Below are positions 11,545-43,884 of a stretch of DNA of 46,224 nucleotides, piece by piece. Below the pieces are notes generated by a model, which was not told where the DNA came from, searched no databases, and saw nothing but the letters and a program-made list of their open reading frames with translations. Location: assembly GCA_026395435.1 (NCBI GenBank), contig JAPLYT010000002.1, positions 1-46,224 on the forward strand, written 5' to 3'. A program made the position numbers and the translations under genes. Numbering within the stretch: position 1 is the stretch's first letter; every line of letters begins with the position of its first letter. Source of the stretch: Candidatus Saccharimonadota bacterium. GTDB taxonomy: Bacteria > Patescibacteriota > Saccharimonadia > Saccharimonadales > AWTP1-31.

Positions 11545-12447
11545 ATGAAGATTGCTATATTATCACGCGGCCCTGGAAACTACTCAACAAAACGACTCAA
11601 AGAAGTTGCGCTAGCACGTGGACACGACGTTCGCGTTATCAACCATGCTGAATGTTATGTGACGGTCGAAAAGAGCAGGCCAGTTGTCCGATATCGCGGT
11701 GAAGACCTTATCGATATCGATGTTATCATCCCCCGAATTGGTCAGAGCATTACCAAGTACGGTACCGCAATGGTTCGTCAATTTGAAATGCAAGGTGTCT
11801 ATACTACAGCTAGCTCAATCGCTATCAACCGTTCCCGCGATAAGCTTCGATCAGTCCAGATATTGGCTCGTGCAGATGTCGGAATTCCAAAAACCGTGTT
11901 CGCCCGTGAAACCAGTGATCTCGACGACGTTGTCGAACAAGCAGGTGGTGCGCCACTTATTATCAAAGTTGCCCGTGGAACGCACGGCAATGGTGTGGTG
12001 CTAGCCGAAACACGCAAAGCTGCTCAAGCGGTAATGCAAGCCTTCTATGTGGAAGGTGTGAACTTCTTGGTACAAGAATTCGTCGCCGAATCTGCCGGTG
12101 AAGACATCCGTGCATTCGTCGTTGGTGGCCGTGTGGTAGCTAGTATGAAGCGCCAAAGTTTGGATGATGATTTCCGTTCAAACCTCCACCAAGGTGGGGA
12201 AGGTTCAATCGTGAAGCTTACCGATGATGAGCGCAAGACTGCCCTCAAAGCAGCTAAAGCAATGGGTCTCTCAATCTGTGGTGTTGATATGATGCGATCC
12301 GATCGTGGTCCACTTGTACTTGAAGTAAATCCAAGCCCTGGGTTTGGTGTTGAGAAGGTTACGGGGCGAGATGTGGCCGAGAAGATTATTGAGCATATCG
12401 AGCAAAACGCCAAAGGCATAAGACGCAAAGATCGCATCGGCGCCTAG
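11545..12447 (+). CDS. rimK: 30S ribosomal protein S6--L-glutamate ligase
   Basis: MKIAILSR...YSTKRL, IPRIG, RSRDKLRS, GTHGNGV, FRSNLHQGG, LEVNPSPG (ATP-grasp). Confidence 0.93.
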   Translation: MKIAILSRGPGNYSTKRLKEVALARGHDVRVINHAECYVTVEKSRPVVRYRGEDLIDIDVIIPRIGQSITKYGTAMVRQFEMQGVYTTASSIAINRSRDKLRSVQILARADVGIPKTVFARETSDLDDVVEQAGGAPLIIKVARGTHGNGVVLAETRKAAQAVMQAFYVEGVNFLVQEFVAESAGEDIRAFVVGGRVVASMKRQSLDDDFRSNLHQGGEGSIVKLTDDERKTALKAAKAMGLSICGVDMMRSDRGPLVLEVNPSPGFGVEKVTGRDVAEKIIEHIEQNAKGIRRKDRIGA

Positions 12448-12861
12448 TTGAGCTTACGCAGAAGGCACTATAAACAATTTTAGCTTCCGTTCCTCAGGAC
12501 AAGTATTATTCATACATGTCCTTCCGGTACTCAGCGAGAAATTGCCTCTAGCACTCTTCTGCGAAACCTCACCCTAAATCTAGTTAAATACTCATCGAGA
12601 AAATAACCCCAGTACTCATCTGTGATCCTCTAGGACGTTAGTGGTTAATTTACTGATAAAACTCCTGCTGCGCACAGCCTTAATTGATTAGGGCCGTACA
12701 ATGTTCGTTCCGCGAACAAAAATCACAAATAGCTCAAGTGTGATGCGCCTTGCGATTGTAGTGTGTAAGTGCGTTAGCGCTCTTCTGCGTAAGCTCAACC
12801 CGGCATATTCAGAAATTCTCGTCGAGAATATAACTTTAGTGCTCATCTGCGAAACCCCAAC
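12447..12861. repeat. Cluster of ~25-bp repeats (REP/MITE-like)
   Basis: Unit like TAGCRCTCWTCTGCGWAAVCYCAMC at 12549, 12610 (degenerate), 12775, 12837, plus an inverted copy at 12447-12470. Confidence 0.75.
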
Positions 12862-12904
12862 ACAAGTGAGTTATTAGGGTGATAGAGCGTGGTATTATAG
12901 AGGG

Positions 12905-13807: not shown

Positions 13808-13825
13808 AGACTTATTGTATCAGGG

Positions 13826-14098
13826 TGGAGCCCAGTGAGTATGTTCTACGAACCATTTCCTCACTTTCTCGAAGCAAGCTTCTACGATAGCTCGTCATGA
13901 ACGAACAGCACGACACTAAATATGCCCAGCGAGGGCTGCCTTCGGCACGTTTCGCAATCTTCTCGGAATGAATTCCTGCGACGATTGCTTACGAACGAAC
14001 TCACGACAACAATCCGCTTTCGCGTCTTGGTCGTGAATCCAAGGCTCACTGGAAGACATACAAATTAAAATACCTACGGCGAGGTAGGTATTTTAATT
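13826..14098 (-). repeat. tRNA-Lys-tailored downstream element
   Basis: Terminator; antisense tRNA 3'-half copy (14030-14052); exact 13-bp T-arm copy (13996-14008); core CTCGGAATGAATTCCTGCG (13962-13980); acceptor-end copy (13826-13839). Confidence 0.75.
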
Positions 14099-14099
14099 T
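14062..14099 (-). terminator. Intrinsic terminator after tRNA-Lys
   Basis: Hairpin AAATTAAAATACCTAC-ggcgag-GTAGGTATTTTAATTT. Confidence 0.7.
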
Positions 14100-14175
14100 G
14101 GAGGGCCCAGTGAGACTCGAACTCACGACACCCTGCTTAAAAGGCAGGTGCTCTAACCGGCTGAGCTATGGGCCC
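14099..14175 (-). tRNA. tRNA-Lys(TTT)
   Basis: Reverse complement GGGCCCATAGCTCAGCCGGTTAGAGCACCTGCCTTTTAAGCAGGGTGTCGTGAGTTCGAGTCTCACTGGGCCCTCCA folds as a cloverleaf; encoded CCA. Confidence 0.95.
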
Positions 14176-19439: not shown

Positions 19440-20270
19440 ATGAATCCTCCAAAACAAGATTTTTCAATAACCCTTGGCCAAATAAACCCTAATGAAAAAC
19501 TACTTGCCGTTATTAAGCGTCATCCTTTTGGTATTGTGAAATTATACGTCCAAATGCTTGTCGGCGTTGTTTTTGCAGGAGGCCTGATCATGGTTCTTTT
19601 GCCTCAACTTATATCGCGCGAAGATAATCCAAGTGTGTATGTTGGGGTAGGAATCGTTGCAGTGATAATCATCGTCTTTTTGATATTTCTTTTGGCTGTC
19701 GCTACTGTTATCTACAGGCGAAATAAACTGGTTGTAACCAGTGAGACAATTACACAGACCTTACAGCTTGGGCTATTCAACAAAAAGATTTCACAGCTCG
19801 CAGTATCGAACATTGAGGATGTTACTGCCCAAAAGTCAGGGTTTTTCCCAACGGTACTCAACTACTCCCGATTACTCATTGAAACTGCAGGCGAACAAGA
19901 AAACTTCTATTTCGATTACTGCCCGTCGGCAGACCATTATGCCAAGCTTATTCTGGAGACGCGACAAGCATTTTTGTCTGGACGTGAGTTTGAATTTAAT
20001 GTTCAAAATCGAGGTCAAGCGGGCTCGATGCCCCAGAACGGCGCACAACAACAACCTAACCTATATGCTCCCGCTGGTCCTGCGCCTGGGCAATATGCAC
20101 AACCAGCATCACCTCAATATCCTGACCCCAGTCAGGTACCGGCTCAGCCATATCCTGCTGCCCCTAATCCTGTCATGAATCCTGGCCAGTACAACCCGGC
20201 CCAGCCATACAATCAGAATCAACCGCAGCCTCCAGTAGATCCAAATCAAGTTCCACCAACCGGATACTAA
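19440..20270 (+). CDS. Membrane protein with bacterial PH-like domain and Pro/Gln-rich tail
   Basis: Two TMs then IEDVT...LLIETAGE; low-complexity C-terminus; TGATATAAT-N7-ATG. Confidence 0.7.
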   Translation: MNPPKQDFSITLGQINPNEKLLAVIKRHPFGIVKLYVQMLVGVVFAGGLIMVLLPQLISREDNPSVYVGVGIVAVIIIVFLIFLLAVATVIYRRNKLVVTSETITQTLQLGLFNKKISQLAVSNIEDVTAQKSGFFPTVLNYSRLLIETAGEQENFYFDYCPSADHYAKLILETRQAFLSGREFEFNVQNRGQAGSMPQNGAQQQPNLYAPAGPAPGQYAQPASPQYPDPSQVPAQPYPAAPNPVMNPGQYNPAQPYNQNQPQPPVDPNQVPPTGY

Positions 20271-21523: not shown

Positions 21524-22156
21524 ATGGTAGACAAAAAGATCGTTCTGCAGCAGTTGGCACAAATCGGTGCTACGACATCATTCTGGGGACAACCCGAGCT
21601 TAATGAGCTACCCAACATCCTCATCGATGGTGAAGAAATTCAACACATTCTTAATGGTTATTATCATGGGGGATTCGCCACTCTCTGTGCAACCAACATG
21701 AGGTTATTACTCATAGACAAAAAGGTATTCTTCCTCAATCTCGAAGATATCAGATACGATATGATCGCTGAGGTTGATTACGGCCACCAATTTATGGGAG
21801 CTACCATACATATTCGAAGCTTTAGTAAAGACCTCAAATTCCAGAGCTTTAAACAGAAAGAATTGCGCGACTTCACGAACTTTATCCAGAAGCGTGTTAT
21901 GGAACTTCGAGGACACCAAGTTGAGAATCGCCAAGCACCTATACCTACAAGTAACCGCTCAGGTGCAATCCCACTGCAAGTATTTGAGACGGGCAGTACA
22001 TCGCTCACCGACCTTCAGGCAGAAACACTTGTCCCAATGGACCCTGCAATATGGCAAAAAGTCAATGAAGCCCGTCGCCAGGTGAACCCGTACGCCCAAA
22101 CGCCCCTCATGATCCGTCGTCGAATAGGACGCTTTAGTAACGCAAACAACAAATAA
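21524..22156 (+). CDS. Bacterial PH-domain protein
   Basis: ELPNILIDGEEI...LCATNMRLLLIDKK...IRYDMIAEV; strong RBS GAGGAGG. Confidence 0.72.
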   Translation: MVDKKIVLQQLAQIGATTSFWGQPELNELPNILIDGEEIQHILNGYYHGGFATLCATNMRLLLIDKKVFFLNLEDIRYDMIAEVDYGHQFMGATIHIRSFSKDLKFQSFKQKELRDFTNFIQKRVMELRGHQVENRQAPIPTSNRSGAIPLQVFETGSTSLTDLQAETLVPMDPAIWQKVNEARRQVNPYAQTPLMIRRRIGRFSNANNK

Positions 22157-22159
22157 ATA

Positions 22160-22420
22160 CTAGGCTGACATTTGTTCAAGTCGTGTGATTCTGACTTCAT
22201 GGTCACGAAGCAGCTCATCGTAGACTTCATTGGATACTGTTATGGCTTCAGCAACGGAGAATGATAGGTCTTGAATCGTCTCTTCAACTCCGTTGATTCG
22301 TGCGTCGACCTCATCAAATCTTTCATCCATCGCATCAAGGCGCTTATTGAGGTCATACGACTGTTGCGCAAAAAGCGCAGTGATAAATTGTTTGAAATCG
22401 TCAATAATTTCCTGGTTCAT
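22160..22420 (-). CDS. Small coiled-coil hypothetical protein
   Basis: Heptad pattern RLDAMDERFDEVDARINGVE...HEVRITRLE; TGATACACT-N6-ATG. Confidence 0.7.
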   Translation of the reverse strand: MNQEIIDDFKQFITALFAQQSYDLNKRLDAMDERFDEVDARINGVEETIQDLSFSVAEAITVSNEVYDELLRDHEVRITRLEQMSA

Positions 22421-22496
22421 AATCTCAGTGTATCACTTTTTGAAATGAATAAAATTGCTCGTGTAAAAGAATATTTTGCTTTGCAAAATGCGCCTC

Positions 22497-22668
22497 CGGG
22501 TGGAGAGAATAAGCCTACGGCTTGCGAACTGCAGCAGTGCTCGGAATTCATTCCTGCGCCCCGCTTTGTTCTTCGAGCCTCCCGTCAGCTCACTTGCGTT
22601 CGCCACGAGAGTTCGTTTCTCTCCGAGACAAAGCAAAAGACCCGCCCCTTTGGACGAGTCTTTCACTT
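22497..22668 (-). repeat. tRNA-Gly-tailored downstream element
   Basis: Terminator 22636-22663; antisense copy 22605-22624 (19/20); T-arm-like copy 22573-22586; core CTCGGAATTCATTCCTGCG 22540-22558; exact 14-bp tRNA copy 22497-22510. Confidence 0.8.
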
Positions 22669-22743
22669 TGGTGCGGGTGGAGAGAATCGAACTCTCGTCC
22701 TGAGTTTGGAAAACTCATATACTAGCCGTTGTACGACACCCGC
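22669..22743 (-). tRNA. tRNA-Gly(TCC)
   Basis: Reverse complement GCGGGTGTCGTACAACGGCTAGTATATGAGTTTTCCAAACTCAGGACGAGAGTTCGATTCTCTCCACCCGCACCA. Confidence 0.92.
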
Positions 22744-29051: not shown

Positions 29052-29241
29052 AAAAGACCTCAGAAGAGGTGGGTGAAAGGAACTGCCTTTAGCACATCAG
29101 CTACTGTCCTCGGAATTAATTCCTGTGGGCAGTATTGATGAGCACACCTTCGACATACGCCAGCAAGCTGACGTGTCTCAGAGCTAAGTCCTTAATACCA
29201 CGGGCAAATAAAAAAGACCTCAGAAGAGGTCTGTTTTATTT
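29052..29241 (-). repeat. tRNA-Pro-tailored downstream element, displaced from its tRNA by the island
   Basis: Terminator 29206-29241; antisense-like 29187-29199; ACCTTCGAC (29146-29154 = 33787-33795); core CTCGGAATTAATTCCTGTG 29109-29127; GGGTGAAAGGA (29071-29081 = 33771-33781). Confidence 0.72.
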
Positions 29242-29438
29242 GGTCGAACCTCTCCGAACGTACTTGAACTGTTCTATTCTATCATCAAAGTTGGTGACCA
29301 ATATGAACGTGCTTGCGTAGAACTAGAGGAATGTTTGAGCTTTACGGTAGAAAACCCCTGTTATGTAACCTTATAACGTGGTATACTTTAAGTAACATTA
29401 GCTAACAATAAGCCAAACTAAGTGAGGGGAAATAACAG

Positions 29439-29657
29439 ATGGATGACGAGAACCACGCCGACACCGCAAATACACTAGATAACGTTGCTAGTACGCAACC
29501 TGTGGTGAGCGATGCACCTGCACCTGCCGTCAATCCATCAACCGCTACTGACAGTAGTGGAAACAATATAATCTTGAACGAAGGCGGTCACAACACTGCT
29601 GATATATCTTCTACACAAGCCTCCTCGAACCAAGGACCAGACGTAATACAAAAATGA
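29439..29657 (+). CDS. Small low-complexity hypothetical protein
   Basis: 72-aa ORF with GAGGGA RBS; ATGA overlap with the next gene. Confidence 0.5.
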   Translation: MDDENHADTANTLDNVASTQPVVSDAPAPAVNPSTATDSSGNNIILNEGGHNTADISSTQASSNQGPDVIQK

Positions 29658-30061
29658 GTACCGTAGACACCCAAGAACAGTTTATAGAGATGCGAGCGAA
29701 CAACGAAAGTTACGCCAGCATTGCTACCAAATTAGGTGTCAGCAAAACCACCCTTATCAAGTGGGCTAAAGATTACGAATACGAAATACATAACCAACGG
29801 TCACTCAATATGGATGCCTTGCAAGAGCAGTACAAGGTCGGTAAGCAACATCGTATACAAATGCTGGGCGAAAGGTTGCAAAAGCTACAAACAGAGGCAG
29901 AAAACCGTGATTTATCAGAAGTACCGACCTACAAGCTATTTGAACTTATTGACCGTACTGTACAGGCACTAGAGCGTGAGGAAACACCGTTTGTATACAC
30001 CGAGGTAGAAGACGGTATGCGGTTACAACCTCTCAATACAATAACTAAGTTAAGTGTCTAG
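29654..30061 (+). CDS. HTH-containing hypothetical protein
   Basis: SYASIATKLGVSKTTLIKW HTH followed by a helical region. Confidence 0.7.
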   Translation: MSTVDTQEQFIEMRANNESYASIATKLGVSKTTLIKWAKDYEYEIHNQRSLNMDALQEQYKVGKQHRIQMLGERLQKLQTEAENRDLSEVPTYKLFELIDRTVQALEREETPFVYTEVEDGMRLQPLNTITKLSV

Positions 30062-30095
30062 GATGGTCCAAAAGTTGACCAAAACTGTACCAATT

Positions 30096-30278
30096 ATGAA
30101 AACAGACGATTTACCAGACTACCTAACGTTAAAACAAGCCTGCGTGCTATTACAAGTCCACCCTAACACCCTACGCAACTGGGATAAAAAAGGCATTTTG
30201 AAGGCTAATCGCATCGGTGAACGTGGTGTTAGGCGATACAAGAAAACAGATTTAATAAATTATATGGAGGCAAAATGA
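30096..30278 (+). CDS. Excisionase-like / MerR-type HTH protein
   Basis: YLTLKQACVLLQVHPNTLRNWDKKGIL...RRY. Confidence 0.82.
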   Translation: MKTDDLPDYLTLKQACVLLQVHPNTLRNWDKKGILKANRIGERGVRRYKKTDLINYMEAK

Positions 30279-30940
30279 TTGTTATAACAGGTGCAAGTGA
30301 CGGACTAGGTTTACAGTTGGCAAAGCTTTATAAGGAAGCAGGTAAAACTGTGGTGAACGTGTCACGGCGTAAAAGTGAATATGCAGACCATAATATACTC
30401 TTTAGCTTACGTGAAGGACCAGAAATTGAAAAAGCAGCAAAAGCAATTCTTGCCATTGATGAGCCTATTGAGGCACTTGTAAATTGTGCAGGTGTTTTAT
30501 CTATACAGCCACTAGGCAAAATTACCGAGGATGAAATAAAGCGTGTTATGTCTACTAACGTAAAGTCGGCAATTCTGCTAGTTTCAAATCTTGCTGAAAG
30601 AATAAAAAAAGACGGAACTGACATTGTAAATGTGGCTTCAACAGTTGGACTTAAAGGGTACGTTGACCAAGCAGTTTACGGTGCTTCTAAATGGGCTATT
30701 AGAGGTTTTAGTGCGAACTTGCAAGCTGAACTAAAAGACACGCCTTGCAGGGTTATTAGTTTTTGTACAGGTGGCTTTAAGTCAAAGTTATTCGCTAAAG
30801 CAACTGGAGATGACAACACTACTAACGAAGGTGAATGGATGCGACCAGAGGATGTAGCTTTATTTATGAAACAGATACTAGACTTACCGAAAAATATGGA
30901 AGTATCAGAAGTTATTATCAATAGAAAACAAGCGAAATAG
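30275..30940 (+). CDS. SDR family oxidoreductase
   Basis: TGASDGLG, VNCAG, NVAS, YGASK. Confidence 0.92.
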   Translation: MIVITGASDGLGLQLAKLYKEAGKTVVNVSRRKSEYADHNILFSLREGPEIEKAAKAILAIDEPIEALVNCAGVLSIQPLGKITEDEIKRVMSTNVKSAILLVSNLAERIKKDGTDIVNVASTVGLKGYVDQAVYGASKWAIRGFSANLQAELKDTPCRVISFCTGGFKSKLFAKATGDDNTTNEGEWMRPEDVALFMKQILDLPKNMEVSEVIINRKQAK

Positions 30941-30943
30941 GTT

Positions 30944-32062
30944 ATGGGCGAACAAATGATAAACCTTGATATGGAAAAAATAAACGCTGGTATAGCCGAT
31001 AGGTCCGATGTTTTTTATTGGCAAACAGACCGTGCCGTGGAACCAGAACAGGCAGGTCATATATGGGCTGATAGACACCGTTATTTCACTGATACAGAGC
31101 TTGTAGAGCGTGTAAACGGTGTTATTGGTGATGATAAACTTGGTTCGATATAGCCACTAGACCTAGACGCTCAAACCAATTTAGGGAACGTCAATTCTGT
31201 ACGTGTTGGTACGCTCGTTTCTGGCAAAGAAGTTATCATCCGAAGTCACCCTAAAGGTGTAAAAAATGGTTATTTCCACGCAGAAGCCGAAGCATCACAC
31301 CGTGCCAAAGCATCAGGTTTACCAAGTTACGAAACATTAGCTGTTCACGACTATGAACGTGGTGACGATTTTGCCTTTCAGGTAATTGAAAAACTGTCAG
31401 GTACAGCTATTAAAAAATGGCTGGAAAATCACCCAGATGACGAAGCAAAGCTTTTACCACAGGTTGGTAAGATGATGGCTCGATTACATAATGTTAAAGT
31501 TGATGGATTTGGACCATTTGATAATCAAAAAGCTAAAAATGGTGAGCTTGTTGGGGTACACACAACGCTAGGTAAAGCCGTAAGGGCTGGACTACTGTTT
31601 AATCTTGATGTACTTGTTGAGCAAGGTATTTTGACAGCTACACAGCAAGAAGCCGTAGCAGGGTTGTTCGCCGATAGTAACCCCCTACTAACAATAAGTC
31701 AGGCTGTGCTTGTACATAATGATTTTGCAGACTGGAACTTATTAACGGACGGCGAGGATGTTACTGGCGTATTAGATTGGGACGAGTGTGTAGCAAGTGA
31801 CCCTGTTGCAGACATAGCTTGTTGGAGTACATTCTTTGAACCAGAACGCTTAAAGCCATTTCTTGATGGCTATTGGCAGGTTGCCGATAAACCTGATGAT
31901 TTTGAAGATAAGTTTGAGTTACTACGACTAAGATATGTTGTTTCAAAAATGACACTTCGGACAAGACGCTATACTTGGGACCCAAGTGACTTTATGAAGG
32001 AAAAAATCGTAACTGGTAAAACACACTTGGCTCAATCTATGAGCTACTTTGATATTAAGTAG
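30944..32062 (+). pseudogene. Aminoglycoside/choline phosphotransferase-family kinase interrupted by one in-frame TAG (31151-31153)
   Basis: ORFs 30944-31153 and 31472-32062 share a frame and the intervening sequence is open; HNDFADWN and LDWD kinase motifs. Confidence 0.82.
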
Positions 32063-32070
32063 GCACGGCT

Positions 32071-33924
32071 ATGGACGAAGAAAACATCAAAAAAGGTCCA
32101 CTTGACGAACTGCTATCAATTTTTCAGGCAAACAAAGATTTACAAGAAGAAGTAATCAAGCCAGAGAACCTGCGGTACATACTGTATGCTCGCAAATCTA
32201 CTGTTGATGAGGGTCGGCAAGAAAAGTCCATCCCTGACCAAATAAATGACTGTTTTGACCGTGTTATAAAGCCCCTGCATATCACCTTGCCTGATAGCGA
32301 CATTATCGAAGAAAAAGGGTCAGCAAAAGAACCTGATATACGACCCCAATTTCGTGAGATGTTGAACAGCATTGTTGCTGGTCGCTATGACGGTATCATC
32401 TGTTGGCATCCTGACCGACTTGCAAGGAATATGAAGGAAGCTGGCGAGATTATCGACCTACTGGACAAGGGTATTATCAAGGACCTGCGATTTGCTACTT
32501 CTGCCTTCGAAAACAGCCCCACAGGTAAGATGTTGCTGGGTATTAGCTTTGTTCTATCAAAACAATACTCCGAACACCTTAGCGAAAGCGTCACTAGAGG
32601 TAATAAACGCCGTACTGAAAATGGATGGTGTTTGAAGAAGCAACAGCACGGCTACTACATATCTGACGGCAAGCTGTTCCCTGATGGCGAAAACTACAAT
32701 ATCATCCGTCACGCCTTCGATATGAGGTTACAGGGCAAGACACAAGCCCAAGTCGAGCGGTATTTGAACAAACGTAGTGACTATAAGGTATTTCGCAAAA
32801 TCAACATCAAAGACAAGCACGGTAAGGTGCTAAAGCGTACCTCGGAGCGAGTAGCCTATAAATGGGATAAAGATGCTGTGTCGGAAATGCTCAAAGACAC
32901 TACCTATGTTGGTATTTTGCAGTATGGTCGTGCCTACTGTGTACTGGGTGATTTTTATGACTTTACTCCTATGGCCACCGAAGAAGAGTATTTGACCTTA
33001 TACCCTCGTCAGGACCTTGAAAAGCTAAGATTTAAGGCATCGCAAGCTCGCAAGCAAAGCATATCGGCAAAACTGCTGAATGGTCGCATTGTGTGCGGTG
33101 ACTGTGGGCAAACGCTATCTGCTGGCATCACTACCAAGAAAAAAGGTACAGAGCAACGTTTTCGCTACCGTTGCGAAACCAAGAACTGCCCTATGTATGA
33201 CAAAGGTCCAAGAGCCAAGGTTATTACTGACTTTTGTATAGATTTTCTTGATAAATACCGTTTTACTACCCAGACTAACTACGCTAATTACAAAATCGAA
33301 ATGAGTAGCTACCAAACAAGCCAACGTAAGGAGCTTACAAAGCTCATAGCATCGCTTGCCAAGCAATTATCTGATAAGGAGCGTGAGTACAACAATTCTA
33401 TGCGTATCGCTGCCGACCCTAATCATAGGCTGGCACAACGGTATGCTGACCACGTTGAGTTGTTGGATAAAGAATTAAAGTCACTGCGTAAGGATTATAA
33501 AGAAGCTAAGGACACCAAAGACAAGCTAAATACGGCTATTTTGTCATATGAAAGGTATCTCGAACTTTTCGATAATACAGCTACTTTACTTCGTTCAGAG
33601 CCGAGTTTGGAGTTGCTAGACAATGTACTGTCAAAGTTCTTCTCGAACCTTGTTTTGAAGGGTGCATTGATGCCACCAAAAAACGCTATTACCAGATGGG
33701 AAGTAACCGACTTCAAACTAAGAGAACCCTATGCAGGGTTCTTCAAAGATAGTAATTTCGAACTTGGTCGGGGTGAAAGGACTCAAACCTTCGACCTCTC
33801 GGTCCCAAACCGAGCGCGCTATCAACTGCGCCACACCCCGTCGTCAGAATCGACGGTAGCCTTTCACAAAATTGATGATTCAATTTTGTTCCACGCTCTA
33901 GTCGCTTCTTCCTCTCAGTTCTAA
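32071..33924 (+). CDS. Large serine recombinase (integrase)
   Basis: LYARKST catalytic motif, DRLARN, recombinase domain, Zn ribbon CGDC...C...C, coiled coil; the 3' end runs antisense through tRNA-Pro. Confidence 0.93.
   Translation: MDEENIKKGPLDELLSIFQANKDLQEEVIKPENLRYILYARKSTVDEGRQEKSIPDQINDCFDRVIKPLHITLPDSDIIEEKGSAKEPDIRPQFREMLNSIVAGRYDGIICWHPDRLARNMKEAGEIIDLLDKGIIKDLRFATSAFENSPTGKMLLGISFVLSKQYSEHLSESVTRGNKRRTENGWCLKKQQHGYYISDGKLFPDGENYNIIRHAFDMRLQGKTQAQVERYLNKRSDYKVFRKINIKDKHGKVLKRTSERVAYKWDKDAVSEMLKDTTYVGILQYGRAYCVLGDFYDFTPMATEEEYLTLYPRQDLEKLRFKASQARKQSISAKLLNGRIVCGDCGQTLSAGITTKKKGTEQRFRYRCETKNCPMYDKGPRAKVITDFCIDFLDKYRFTTQTNYANYKIEMSSYQTSQRKELTKLIASLAKQLSDKEREYNNSMRIAADPNHRLAQRYADHVELLDKELKSLRKDYKEAKDTKDKLNTAILSYERYLELFDNTATLLRSEPSLELLDNVLSKFFSNLVLKGALMPPKNAITRWEVTDFKLREPYAGFFKDSNFELGRGERTQTFDLSVPNRARYQLRHTPSSESTVAFHKIDDSILFHALVASSSQF
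33765..33840 (-). tRNA. tRNA-Pro(TGG)
   Basis: Reverse complement CGGGGTGTGGCGCAGTTGATAGCGCGCTCGGTTTGGGACCGAGAGGTCGAAGGTTTGAGTCCTTTCACCCCGACCA. Confidence 0.92.
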
Positions 33925-43504: not shown

Positions 43505-43884
43505 GATACTTTTGAAGTCAAAAGTATCCAAAAACTCTTGGACCACTCTCTCATATAGATACACTACGTATGTCTAATAAAACAACAGGCTTGCGGAACT
43601 CGCTTCGCTCAAACAGTCCTCGCCTGTTAGTTGTTTTATCGACCGTAGTTGTATCTCATGAGTTCGCGATGTCCGTATAAAGACAAGAACTATTAAATAT
43701 TGTCTTGTCTAAGTACGGGCATCGGAAAAATCCGAAGCAAGCTGTAATACTCAAAGGGAACGAAGTCGAGGACTGTCTGAGCGTAGCGAGTTCCGCAGAC
43801 TTCTTCTTTTTGAGATTATAAGCTTGTGCTCGATATTTTTCTGGCCCTGATGGTTCCCCGATACTTTTGCCAAAACAAAAGTAT
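43505..43884. repeat. REPIN-like nested inverted-repeat element
   Basis: 30-bp IR 43593-43622 / 43767-43796 (28/30); GATACTTTTG..CAAAAGTAT hairpins at 43505 and 43860; central hairpin 43681-43710. Confidence 0.75.

Follow-up and report, generated by a model that had tools for sequence, protein, structure and literature searches.

A likely mobile, tRNA-linked DNA element with a folded core and an antisense T-arm copy in Saccharimonadales

Introduction

Genomic islands integrated at tRNA genes (Islander, PMC4383910; bioRxiv 10.1101/2020.11.02.365908) are described as leaving an intact upstream tRNA gene and a displaced downstream 3' fragment in the same orientation, with a crossover in the T-loop region and tandem accretion. 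The element reported here resembles them in each of these respects. It differs in size, at about 170 bases compared with 2–200 kb for islands (PMC4383910), and it is non-coding, whereas islands hold an integrase; no integrase-bearing version was present in the loci examined. Unlike islands, it also splits the T-loop, carries an inverted copy of its target and uses at least 35 tRNA types with a single family.

REP/REPIN sequences, which are associated with RAYT proteins, share with the element their short non-coding palindromes, patchy copy number and a likely trans-acting protein on single-stranded DNA hairpins (PMC3733652). The terminal unpaired GTAG/CGTC tag of those sequences is not present in the element, where an RCAG motif is internal and partly paired. 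REPs are dispersed, whereas all 23 copies of the element in this genome are tRNA-linked, with a multi-branch fold and an 18-base target duplication. No RAYT gene flanked by the repeat was found: the genome has no Y1_Tnp domain, and the Y1 genes of relatives have repeats of their own. The element is therefore not a REP, although an earlier suggestion had called it REP-like. The bcr1/MITE-like repeats of Bacillus cereus are similar in length (approximately 150 bases), in a cruciform fold with compensatory changes and in patchy positions, but they have 5-bp direct repeats and neither a tRNA target nor a target-matched arm (PMC3184786); the element instead duplicates tRNA positions 59–76 and has no conserved terminal repeats. 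Integron attC sites also form a recombination site from one folded DNA strand with conserved unpaired bases (PMC5737381). In contrast to integrons, the genome studied here has no integron integrase and no cassette array (it encodes one tyrosine recombinase), and cargo between units is only occasional.

Integration of a folded single strand is established for the CTX phage, and IS200/IS605 transposons choose their target by DNA-DNA pairing. The element differs from the latter in that no Y1 transposase is present and the target is a tRNA T-loop, which is duplicated. Tandem units with a tRNA 3' end and a terminator, as in the element, also occur in the tRNA-linked repeats of E. coli, for which we know of no shared core or antisense arm. 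Mobile DNA tends to be lost from genomes smaller than 1 Mb, yet inserts occur here at up to half of the tRNA genes, across a whole bacterial order. A literature search that covered few subscription papers found no published description, and the element is probably undescribed mobile DNA. This work adds junction statistics, a DNA-versus-RNA control, the modularity of frame and core, strain-level turnover and a core tip shared with another repeat.

Results

A composite unit follows tRNA-Gly

The window is the whole 46,224-nt stretch of DNA that was analyzed (contig JAPLYT010000002.1, positions 1 to 46,224 of the forward strand), from a Candidatus Saccharimonadota genome of 938 kb in 17 contigs (GCA_026395435.1). 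A preliminary description of the window reported five parts behind tRNA-Gly, interpreted them as a mobile or REP-like element, a cis-RNA switch or decoy att sites, and proposed checks that included tRNA enrichment in this genome and its relatives, covariation, comparison of orthologous tRNA loci, and a search for a co-occurring HUH/RAYT or integrase gene. All five parts are present at the reported positions, as judged by ARAGORN, folding, the 19/20 arm match and the exact 14-nt copy:

22669..22743, minus strand: tRNA-Gly(tcc), the intact target gene (ARAGORN; Rfam)
22629..22668, minus strand: terminator-like hairpin hp1, directly after the CCA, part of the inserted unit (fold)
22605..22624, minus strand: antisense arm, a putative guide, complementary to the tRNA T-arm at 19/20 positions (the mismatch is A58)
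22587..22604, minus strand: P2 cap hairpin, between the arm and the 5' copy (fold)
22574..22586, minus strand: degenerate sense copy of the variable loop/T-stem 5' side, ending at G57
22526..22573, minus strand: type-A core hairpin P3, with invariant unpaired A residues; includes the 19-mer motif at 22540-22558
22505-22592: core model match at the tRNA-Gly unit
22511..22523, minus strand: P4 mini-hairpin with a C(GTA)G triloop, at the right junction (folds)
22497..22510, minus strand: distal duplicate of the tRNA 3' end, positions 58-71, exact over 14 nt, CCA lost
22473..22489, minus strand: small P2-cap-like hairpin, possibly a remnant of an older unit (sequence)

Read in the tRNA sense, the general order is CCA, terminator-like hairpin, variable spacer, antisense arm (approximately positions 46–61), cap hairpin, 5' T-stem copy to G57, core hairpin, often a fourth hairpin, and the copy of the tRNA 3' end. 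Units are non-coding and approximately 150–190 nt long, with 87–121 nt (5th–95th percentile) from the tRNA end to the core, and the terminator-like hairpin is closed by TGG in 125 of 160. Folded as DNA, the 183-nt Gly unit gave z = -4.3.

The same order recurs behind tRNA-Lys, as had been noticed, although that gene has two units and not one. The element assigned to tRNA-Pro is also present, but it is 4.6 kb from the tRNA, with a serine-recombinase island between them:

14099..14175, minus strand: tRNA-Lys(ttt), target of two units (ARAGORN)
13915..14098, minus strand: Lys unit 1, with terminator 14061-14098, arm 14030-14052, 5' copy 13996-14008, core match 13927-14014 and a decayed 3' copy
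13822..13920, minus strand: Lys unit 2, with a partial left module, core match 13833-13920 and a 3' copy
29067..29246, minus strand: Pro unit, displaced from tRNA-Pro, with CCA remnant 29241-29246, terminator, arm, core match 29074-29161 and 3' copy 29071-29081
29247..33764, no strand assigned: serine-recombinase island between tRNA-Pro and the Pro unit; context, outside the unit (Pfam; island-free allele in sequencing run X6)
32071..33924, plus strand: large serine recombinase gene of the Pro island, overlapping tRNA-Pro (Pfam)
33765..33840, minus strand: tRNA-Pro(tgg) (ARAGORN)

The 19-mer that was first taken as the shared core occurs three times in the window compared with 0.16 expected, and none of 100 shuffles got to three. 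It marks only one sub-type, with four exact copies genome-wide among 23 cores.

The element is tied to tRNA genes across the order

A core model was built from 19 cores of this genome that aligned almost gap-free and covaried; these 19 are the training set among its 23 matches in the genome. All 23 are tRNA-linked, at 19 of 37 tRNA genes (a count that includes one intron-containing tRNA), and six lie 3–18 kb from their tRNA. Across the order, the model gave 480 matches in 92 of 151 genomes, with 0 to 25 copies per genome and the unpublished genome G057 entered as one no-match row. Approximately 110 loci around the best-scoring of the 480 matches held 125 matches, of which 101 were within 300 bp of a same-strand tRNA, five were farther away and 19 had no tRNA in the locus; this sample of relatives was chosen by our own core model and pattern. 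By inspection, nearly all members of the last two groups followed a CCA remnant and terminator or lay at a contig end. The proposed tRNA enrichment was thus borne out in the genome and in its relatives.

A pattern scan of GTDB genomes returned 130 matches, 71 of them within 300 bp of a tRNA, and 81 of 120 named records with the core pattern were labeled Saccharimonadales (Saccharibacteria). The core model found nothing outside the order: a phylum sample of 151 genomes gave two with matches, both inside it. The full hairpin was present in 32 of 119 metagenome matches, 26 of these 32 having a tRNA nearby, and no autonomous version was found among the 119. Viral contigs gave 16 and 1 matches, none tRNA-linked. 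At the gathering threshold, Rfam matched only the tRNAs over these elements, in keeping with the preliminary remark that the element was not recognized as a described family.

The unit sits at a fixed position in the T-loop

Junctions were mapped on the 69 of 94 first units that have a clear distal copy. Identity to the tRNA was 0.06–0.23 at positions 54–58 and rose to 0.84, 0.74 and 0.97 at positions 59, 60 and 61; in a larger set (n = 104), position 58 matched in 29, position 59 in 85 and position 60 in 86. The 5' copy ends at G57 and the distal duplicate starts at N59 (tRNA 59–76, 18 bases), with a boundary that varies between 58 and 61. Near-exact copies of positions 61–71 occur within 320 nt at 12 of 36 tRNAs, compared with 0.06 expected.

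A terminator follows 149 of 160 element-bearing tRNAs. The proportions for intact distal CCA ends (31 of 79) and for tRNAs without a core (37 of 118) are lower and close to each other, which indicates that the terminator is part of the unit and that the distal side resembles the original host terminus. The distal copy differs from the tRNA at 106 sites, and at none of them was it the better pair with the 5' strand, as expected under neutral decay. The unit behaves as an insertion at A58|N59, and the earlier idea of a non-autonomous mobile element that duplicates the tRNA 3' end is supported.

The core fold covaries and leans toward single-stranded DNA

In 113 aligned cores, 93% of 1808 cells are paired and 14 of 16 pairs show two-sided changes, and the pairing and covariation score exceeded all 500 shuffles and every slid control, in an alignment fitted to the model, which favors high pairing and covariation. 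Adjacent terminator stems were used as an internal control: their G·T to A·C ratio is 242:22, as for an RNA hairpin, compared with 32:28 in the core. C(GNA)G triloops are abundant in the P2 cap (64 versus 11 expected) and in P4 (34 versus 5 expected) relative to a crude shuffle, whereas cUUCGg is absent from both, and GNRA loops are at chance level in the P2 cap and raised in P4 (19 versus 6). Three unpaired A residues are invariant (160, 159 and 158 of 160). The CTTG tip loop was left out of the DNA evidence, since CUUG also forms an RNA tetraloop.

A core without G·U bias and caps rich in C(GNA)G favor single-stranded DNA rather than an RNA switch, as far as sequence statistics can indicate. 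DNA hairpins of the type GCGNAGC melt at 70–76°C and their RNA counterparts are far less stable, according to PMC13037366. The DNA reading is a lean, not proof, because it is difficult to distinguish single-stranded DNA motifs from RNA motifs on the basis of sequence (PMC5737381), and the raised GNRA loops in P4 weigh against it. The elements have no replication-strand bias (p = 0.76); lagging-strand mechanisms that use single-stranded DNA would often give one, so its absence counts against the single-stranded DNA reading.

The antisense arm tracks its own tRNA imperfectly

Each part of the unit was ranked against the cognate tRNA and 73 other tRNA ends. The preliminary claim that the tRNA-like parts match their cognate tRNA is strong for the 3' copy, for which the cognate ranked first in 80 of 94 units, and weaker for the 5' copy (38/94) and the antisense arm (32/94, with 63/94 in the top five). 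Arms match their own tRNA at a mean of 11.1 of 17 positions compared with 9.5 when permuted, the highest of 200 permutations being 9.7; only 8 of 160 match at 15 or more of 17, and the Gly arm is unusually good. Own tRNAs were preferred over same-anticodon tRNAs of other species by 236 to 42, with 93 ties. Among the sites that distinguish the 5' copy from the tRNA, the arm is complementary to the tRNA in 35 cases, to its own copy in 7 and to neither in 9. These statistics fit a guide and also an RNA switch, and kinship of host and element inflates the counts. Shared ancestry of the two can mimic tailoring, and arms are often poor matches.

In its acceptor-stem part, the arm matches at a near-random level (about 0.3), whereas the distal 3' copy is approximately 97% identical, which argues that the arm predates the last insertion and travels with the unit. 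By the same two values, the arms are not simply made anew from the target at every insertion, as the preliminary mobile-element idea would have it.

Units come and go at orthologous tRNA loci

The proposed comparison of orthologous loci found the core at 0 of 22 other tRNA-Gly(tcc) loci; in two genomes (G012 and G014), the same downstream gene as in the window lies directly behind a terminator and the core is absent. Tandem units with differing terminators and cores are common. The nearest relative of a core was in another genome and at a different tRNA in 77 of 93 cases; it was at the same tRNA in 16 of 93 compared with 4.2 expected, so site-specific lineages exist too. Two cores that are 98% alike sit at Tyr and Ser tRNAs in different families, with unrelated left modules.

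Strain-level change was seen in sequencing runs. One contig of run X6 (depth 4), representing a close strain, is identical to the window at 412/412 bases of 22150–22561 and differs at 19 sites and three gaps in 22562–22666; the differences replace the terminator of the Gly unit in this single depth-4 contig, and four of X6's Gly-unit changes recur in run X7, which comes from a different study. In a second X6 contig, 29239 is joined to 33764, so that without the island the Pro element follows tRNA-Pro directly. The seven sequencing runs examined contained no empty Gly allele, and the contigs showed no excised or circular form of the unit. The sharp junction, the orthologous loci that lack a unit, the tandem arrangements, the nearly identical cores found at different tRNAs and the swapped strain allele point to mobility.

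Near-identical units also flank short cargo behind one tRNA at L067:1400-2110 and at C2:87720-88930 of this genome, an arrangement that suggests re-insertion within the same genome.

Frame and core are separate modules

Genome G101, which has no type-A core, carries the same frame with other cores at approximately seven tRNAs. Additional core families, at least three in number and ranging from single small hairpins to type B, occupy the same tRNA frame at G101 loci L576-L598 and at loci L525, L527, L543 and L603 of genome G060. In the genome studied here, type-B cores split two tRNA sequences at T54|T55, namely tRNA-Gly(ccc) and an upstream tRNA-Gln(ctg) copy.

The tRNA-Gly(ccc) T-loop is broken by a type-B core at C17:213027-213215 (L019); ARAGORN found no intact copy of this tRNA in the genome, and the interrupted gene is probably a pseudogene. 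A broken tRNA-Gln(ctg) copy with a type-B core, followed by the intact tRNA, lies at C15:134240-134499, with a near-identical core 12 kb downstream (146560-146900), as if the two cores bracketed the tRNA and its island. At L248:3451-3780, a tRNA-Met 5' half copy carries a type-A core in its anticodon loop, with no arm in front of the core; this half copy is upstream of an intact tRNA-Met that bears its own T-loop unit.

A dispersed, high-copy cruciform repeat of approximately 135 bp in Bacillaceae has the same tip as the type-A core. Four of five genomes hold at least 40 copies of this repeat (loci L336-L365; genomes G172, G173 and G175-G177), which was found with a pattern containing the tip. 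In 31 whole-repeat copies, the bases flanking the tip are constant and the loop varies. The shared tip may reflect convergence. The repeat is comparable with bcr1-type repeats and might correspond to bcr1 itself. It was considered as Rfam Bacillaceae-1, which the Rfam scan rejected; no Rfam match was obtained in the six loci scanned. Hairpin repeats with the same tip, not at tRNAs, were also seen in planctomycete-labeled records and a viral contig family (L186, L194, L246, L255, L274 and L051).

No partner enzyme stands out

No recurrent gene was found beside the elements in the loci examined beyond ordinary tRNA neighbors. The genome contains neither a Y1 HUH transposase (Y1_Tnp) nor a reverse transcriptase; it has one tyrosine recombinase and six serine recombinases at tRNAs, and GIY-YIG occurs only in two long frames (510 and 526 aa). 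Across the same 151 genomes, G057 again entered as a no-match row, the core did not co-occur with Y1_Tnp (30/45 versus 62/106, p = 0.37) or PIF1 helicase (p = 0.72), and its presence or absence was not linked to serine recombinases (p = 0.29), to extra tyrosine recombinases (p = 1) or to Replic_Relax (p = 1), so the suggested HUH/RAYT or integrase companion did not emerge. Island genes of the Replic_Relax family were present in 10 of 16 genomes with at least 10 copies compared with 32 of 135 others (post hoc p = 0.002, close kin included). Subtraction left 43 proteins common to this genome (G000) and G060 and missing from G101, with no transposase or recombinase among the 21 scanned. Both the co-occurrence and the subtraction tests are weak or confounded because genomes that lack this core, such as G101, can hold different cores within an identical frame.

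In relatives, the sequence beside Y1 genes at 30 loci is not that of the element. RAYT-like Y1 transposases (about 200–230 aa; L310-L335) are present in many of 45 genomes from the order, where short palindromes of their own, unrelated to the element, flank them. The six large serine recombinases of this genome (window 29247-33924, C2, C6, C13 and C15) each adjoin a tRNA 3' end; PMC4383910 states that only tyrosine integrases are known to target tRNA genes.

Discussion

We propose, with a probability of roughly 0.6, that the unit is mobile but non-autonomous, travels as single-stranded DNA in folded form, pairs through its arm with the T-arm of the target and inserts after A58. The anatomy, the junctions, core covariation, presence or absence at orthologous sites, tandem units and module exchange are observed features; the single-stranded intermediate is deduced from pair and loop statistics, and the arm's function as a guide is putative, as is a trans-acting nuclease or strand-transfer protein that would bind the core tip. 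The tRNA-sense strand of the unit would fold as single-stranded DNA, its antisense arm would pair with the exposed T-arm of the target tRNA gene, and a protein supplied in trans on the core tip would join the unit after A58. Bases 59–76 would end on both sides of the unit, which is why the tRNA would stay intact, and the distal copy would be the displaced host end, decaying neutrally. The tRNA-specific frame and the core are exchanged independently of each other, thereby allowing cores to reach new tRNAs. A bolder version is tentative, possible but not favored: insertion would be self-programmed and DNA-guided, a swappable arm would address any tRNA T-loop, and the tip would recruit a candidate nuclease that is the same as, or a relative of, the one spreading the Bacillaceae repeats. 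If this DNA-guided reading were true, a new arm would retarget insertion, and the 18-base duplication would leave the gene intact. If the arm is a guide, the element would represent a natural, retargetable and gene-sparing insertion mechanism with directly testable junction and arm rules. For annotation, the repeated tRNA ends look like the att sites of islands, and some tRNA genes are disrupted by related cores.

The main rival dispenses with a dedicated enzyme. Incoming or looped-out single-stranded DNA would anneal by its arm to the T-arm, host polymerase would switch template at approximately position 59, copy the unit and return at the universal CCA, and natural transformation anchored on conserved tRNA genes would spread it. 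This would account for the consistently host-matched proximal 3' end, the junction that drifts between 58 and 61, the lack of a partner gene, several unrelated cores in one frame and the local tracts replaced between strains, and the window encodes a ComEC-family protein (Pfam). We nevertheless regard it as unlikely, because the invariant unpaired A residues and the tip common to the Bacillaceae repeat suggest recognition by a specific protein, the core at L248 entered an anticodon loop with no arm in front, and replication-strand bias is lacking. Neutral scars, that is, local inverted triplications at tRNA terminators homogenized by gene conversion, are scarcely credible: the sense-antisense-sense layout does resemble a template-switch triplication and many copies are decayed, but compensatory covariation of a non-tRNA core across the order largely refutes this origin, and the fixed junctions and invariant unpaired bases also speak against it.

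Two further explanations are each improbable to a high degree. A cis-acting RNA trailer, the switch envisaged in the preliminary description, would have the arm invade the tRNA T-arm in read-through transcripts and so control processing or decay. The predicted RNA fold of tRNA plus element does pair the two (z = -5.6), the structure is on the sense strand and the arm tracks the tRNA better than its own copy (35 versus 7 sites); yet a terminator separates tRNA and arm in 149 of 160 units, 6 of the 23 genome copies are 3–18 kb from their tRNA, orthologues lack the element, the core is DNA-like in having no G·U bias, and a switch leaves the 59–76 duplication and tandem units unexplained. The other explanation, to which we likewise give little weight, treats the units as att-site relics: minimal passengers of tRNA-integrating islands, moved by island recombinases or serving as decoy att sites. 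A tRNA with a displaced 3' fragment is the island signature (PMC4383910), six serine recombinases lie at tRNAs in this genome, and Replic_Relax is enriched post hoc in high-copy genomes. However, islands cross over near the CCA end, leaving only 6–14-base remnants, instead of at 58|59; the units split the T-loop and do not duplicate it, the island-free Pro allele retains the element, and no presence/absence link with serine recombinases, extra tyrosine recombinases or Replic_Relax was detected. The decoy role is further disfavored because islands still integrate at the real tRNA.

Other repeats and an intron-containing tRNA

Two other repeat arrangements were noted in the window. At 43579-43810, a 47-bp inverted repeat pair, 83% complementary and REP-like, is distinct from the tRNA elements, and at 12442-12862, three degenerate direct repeats of approximately 42 bp and an inverted 23-bp pair lie between rimK and the next gene. 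Elsewhere in this genome (C2:19442-20124, minus strand), a tRNA with a CAT anticodon, missed by default ARAGORN, contains an intron of approximately 607 nt that on visual inspection resembles a group I intron; a 141-aa frame on the opposite strand (19722-20147) overlaps it.
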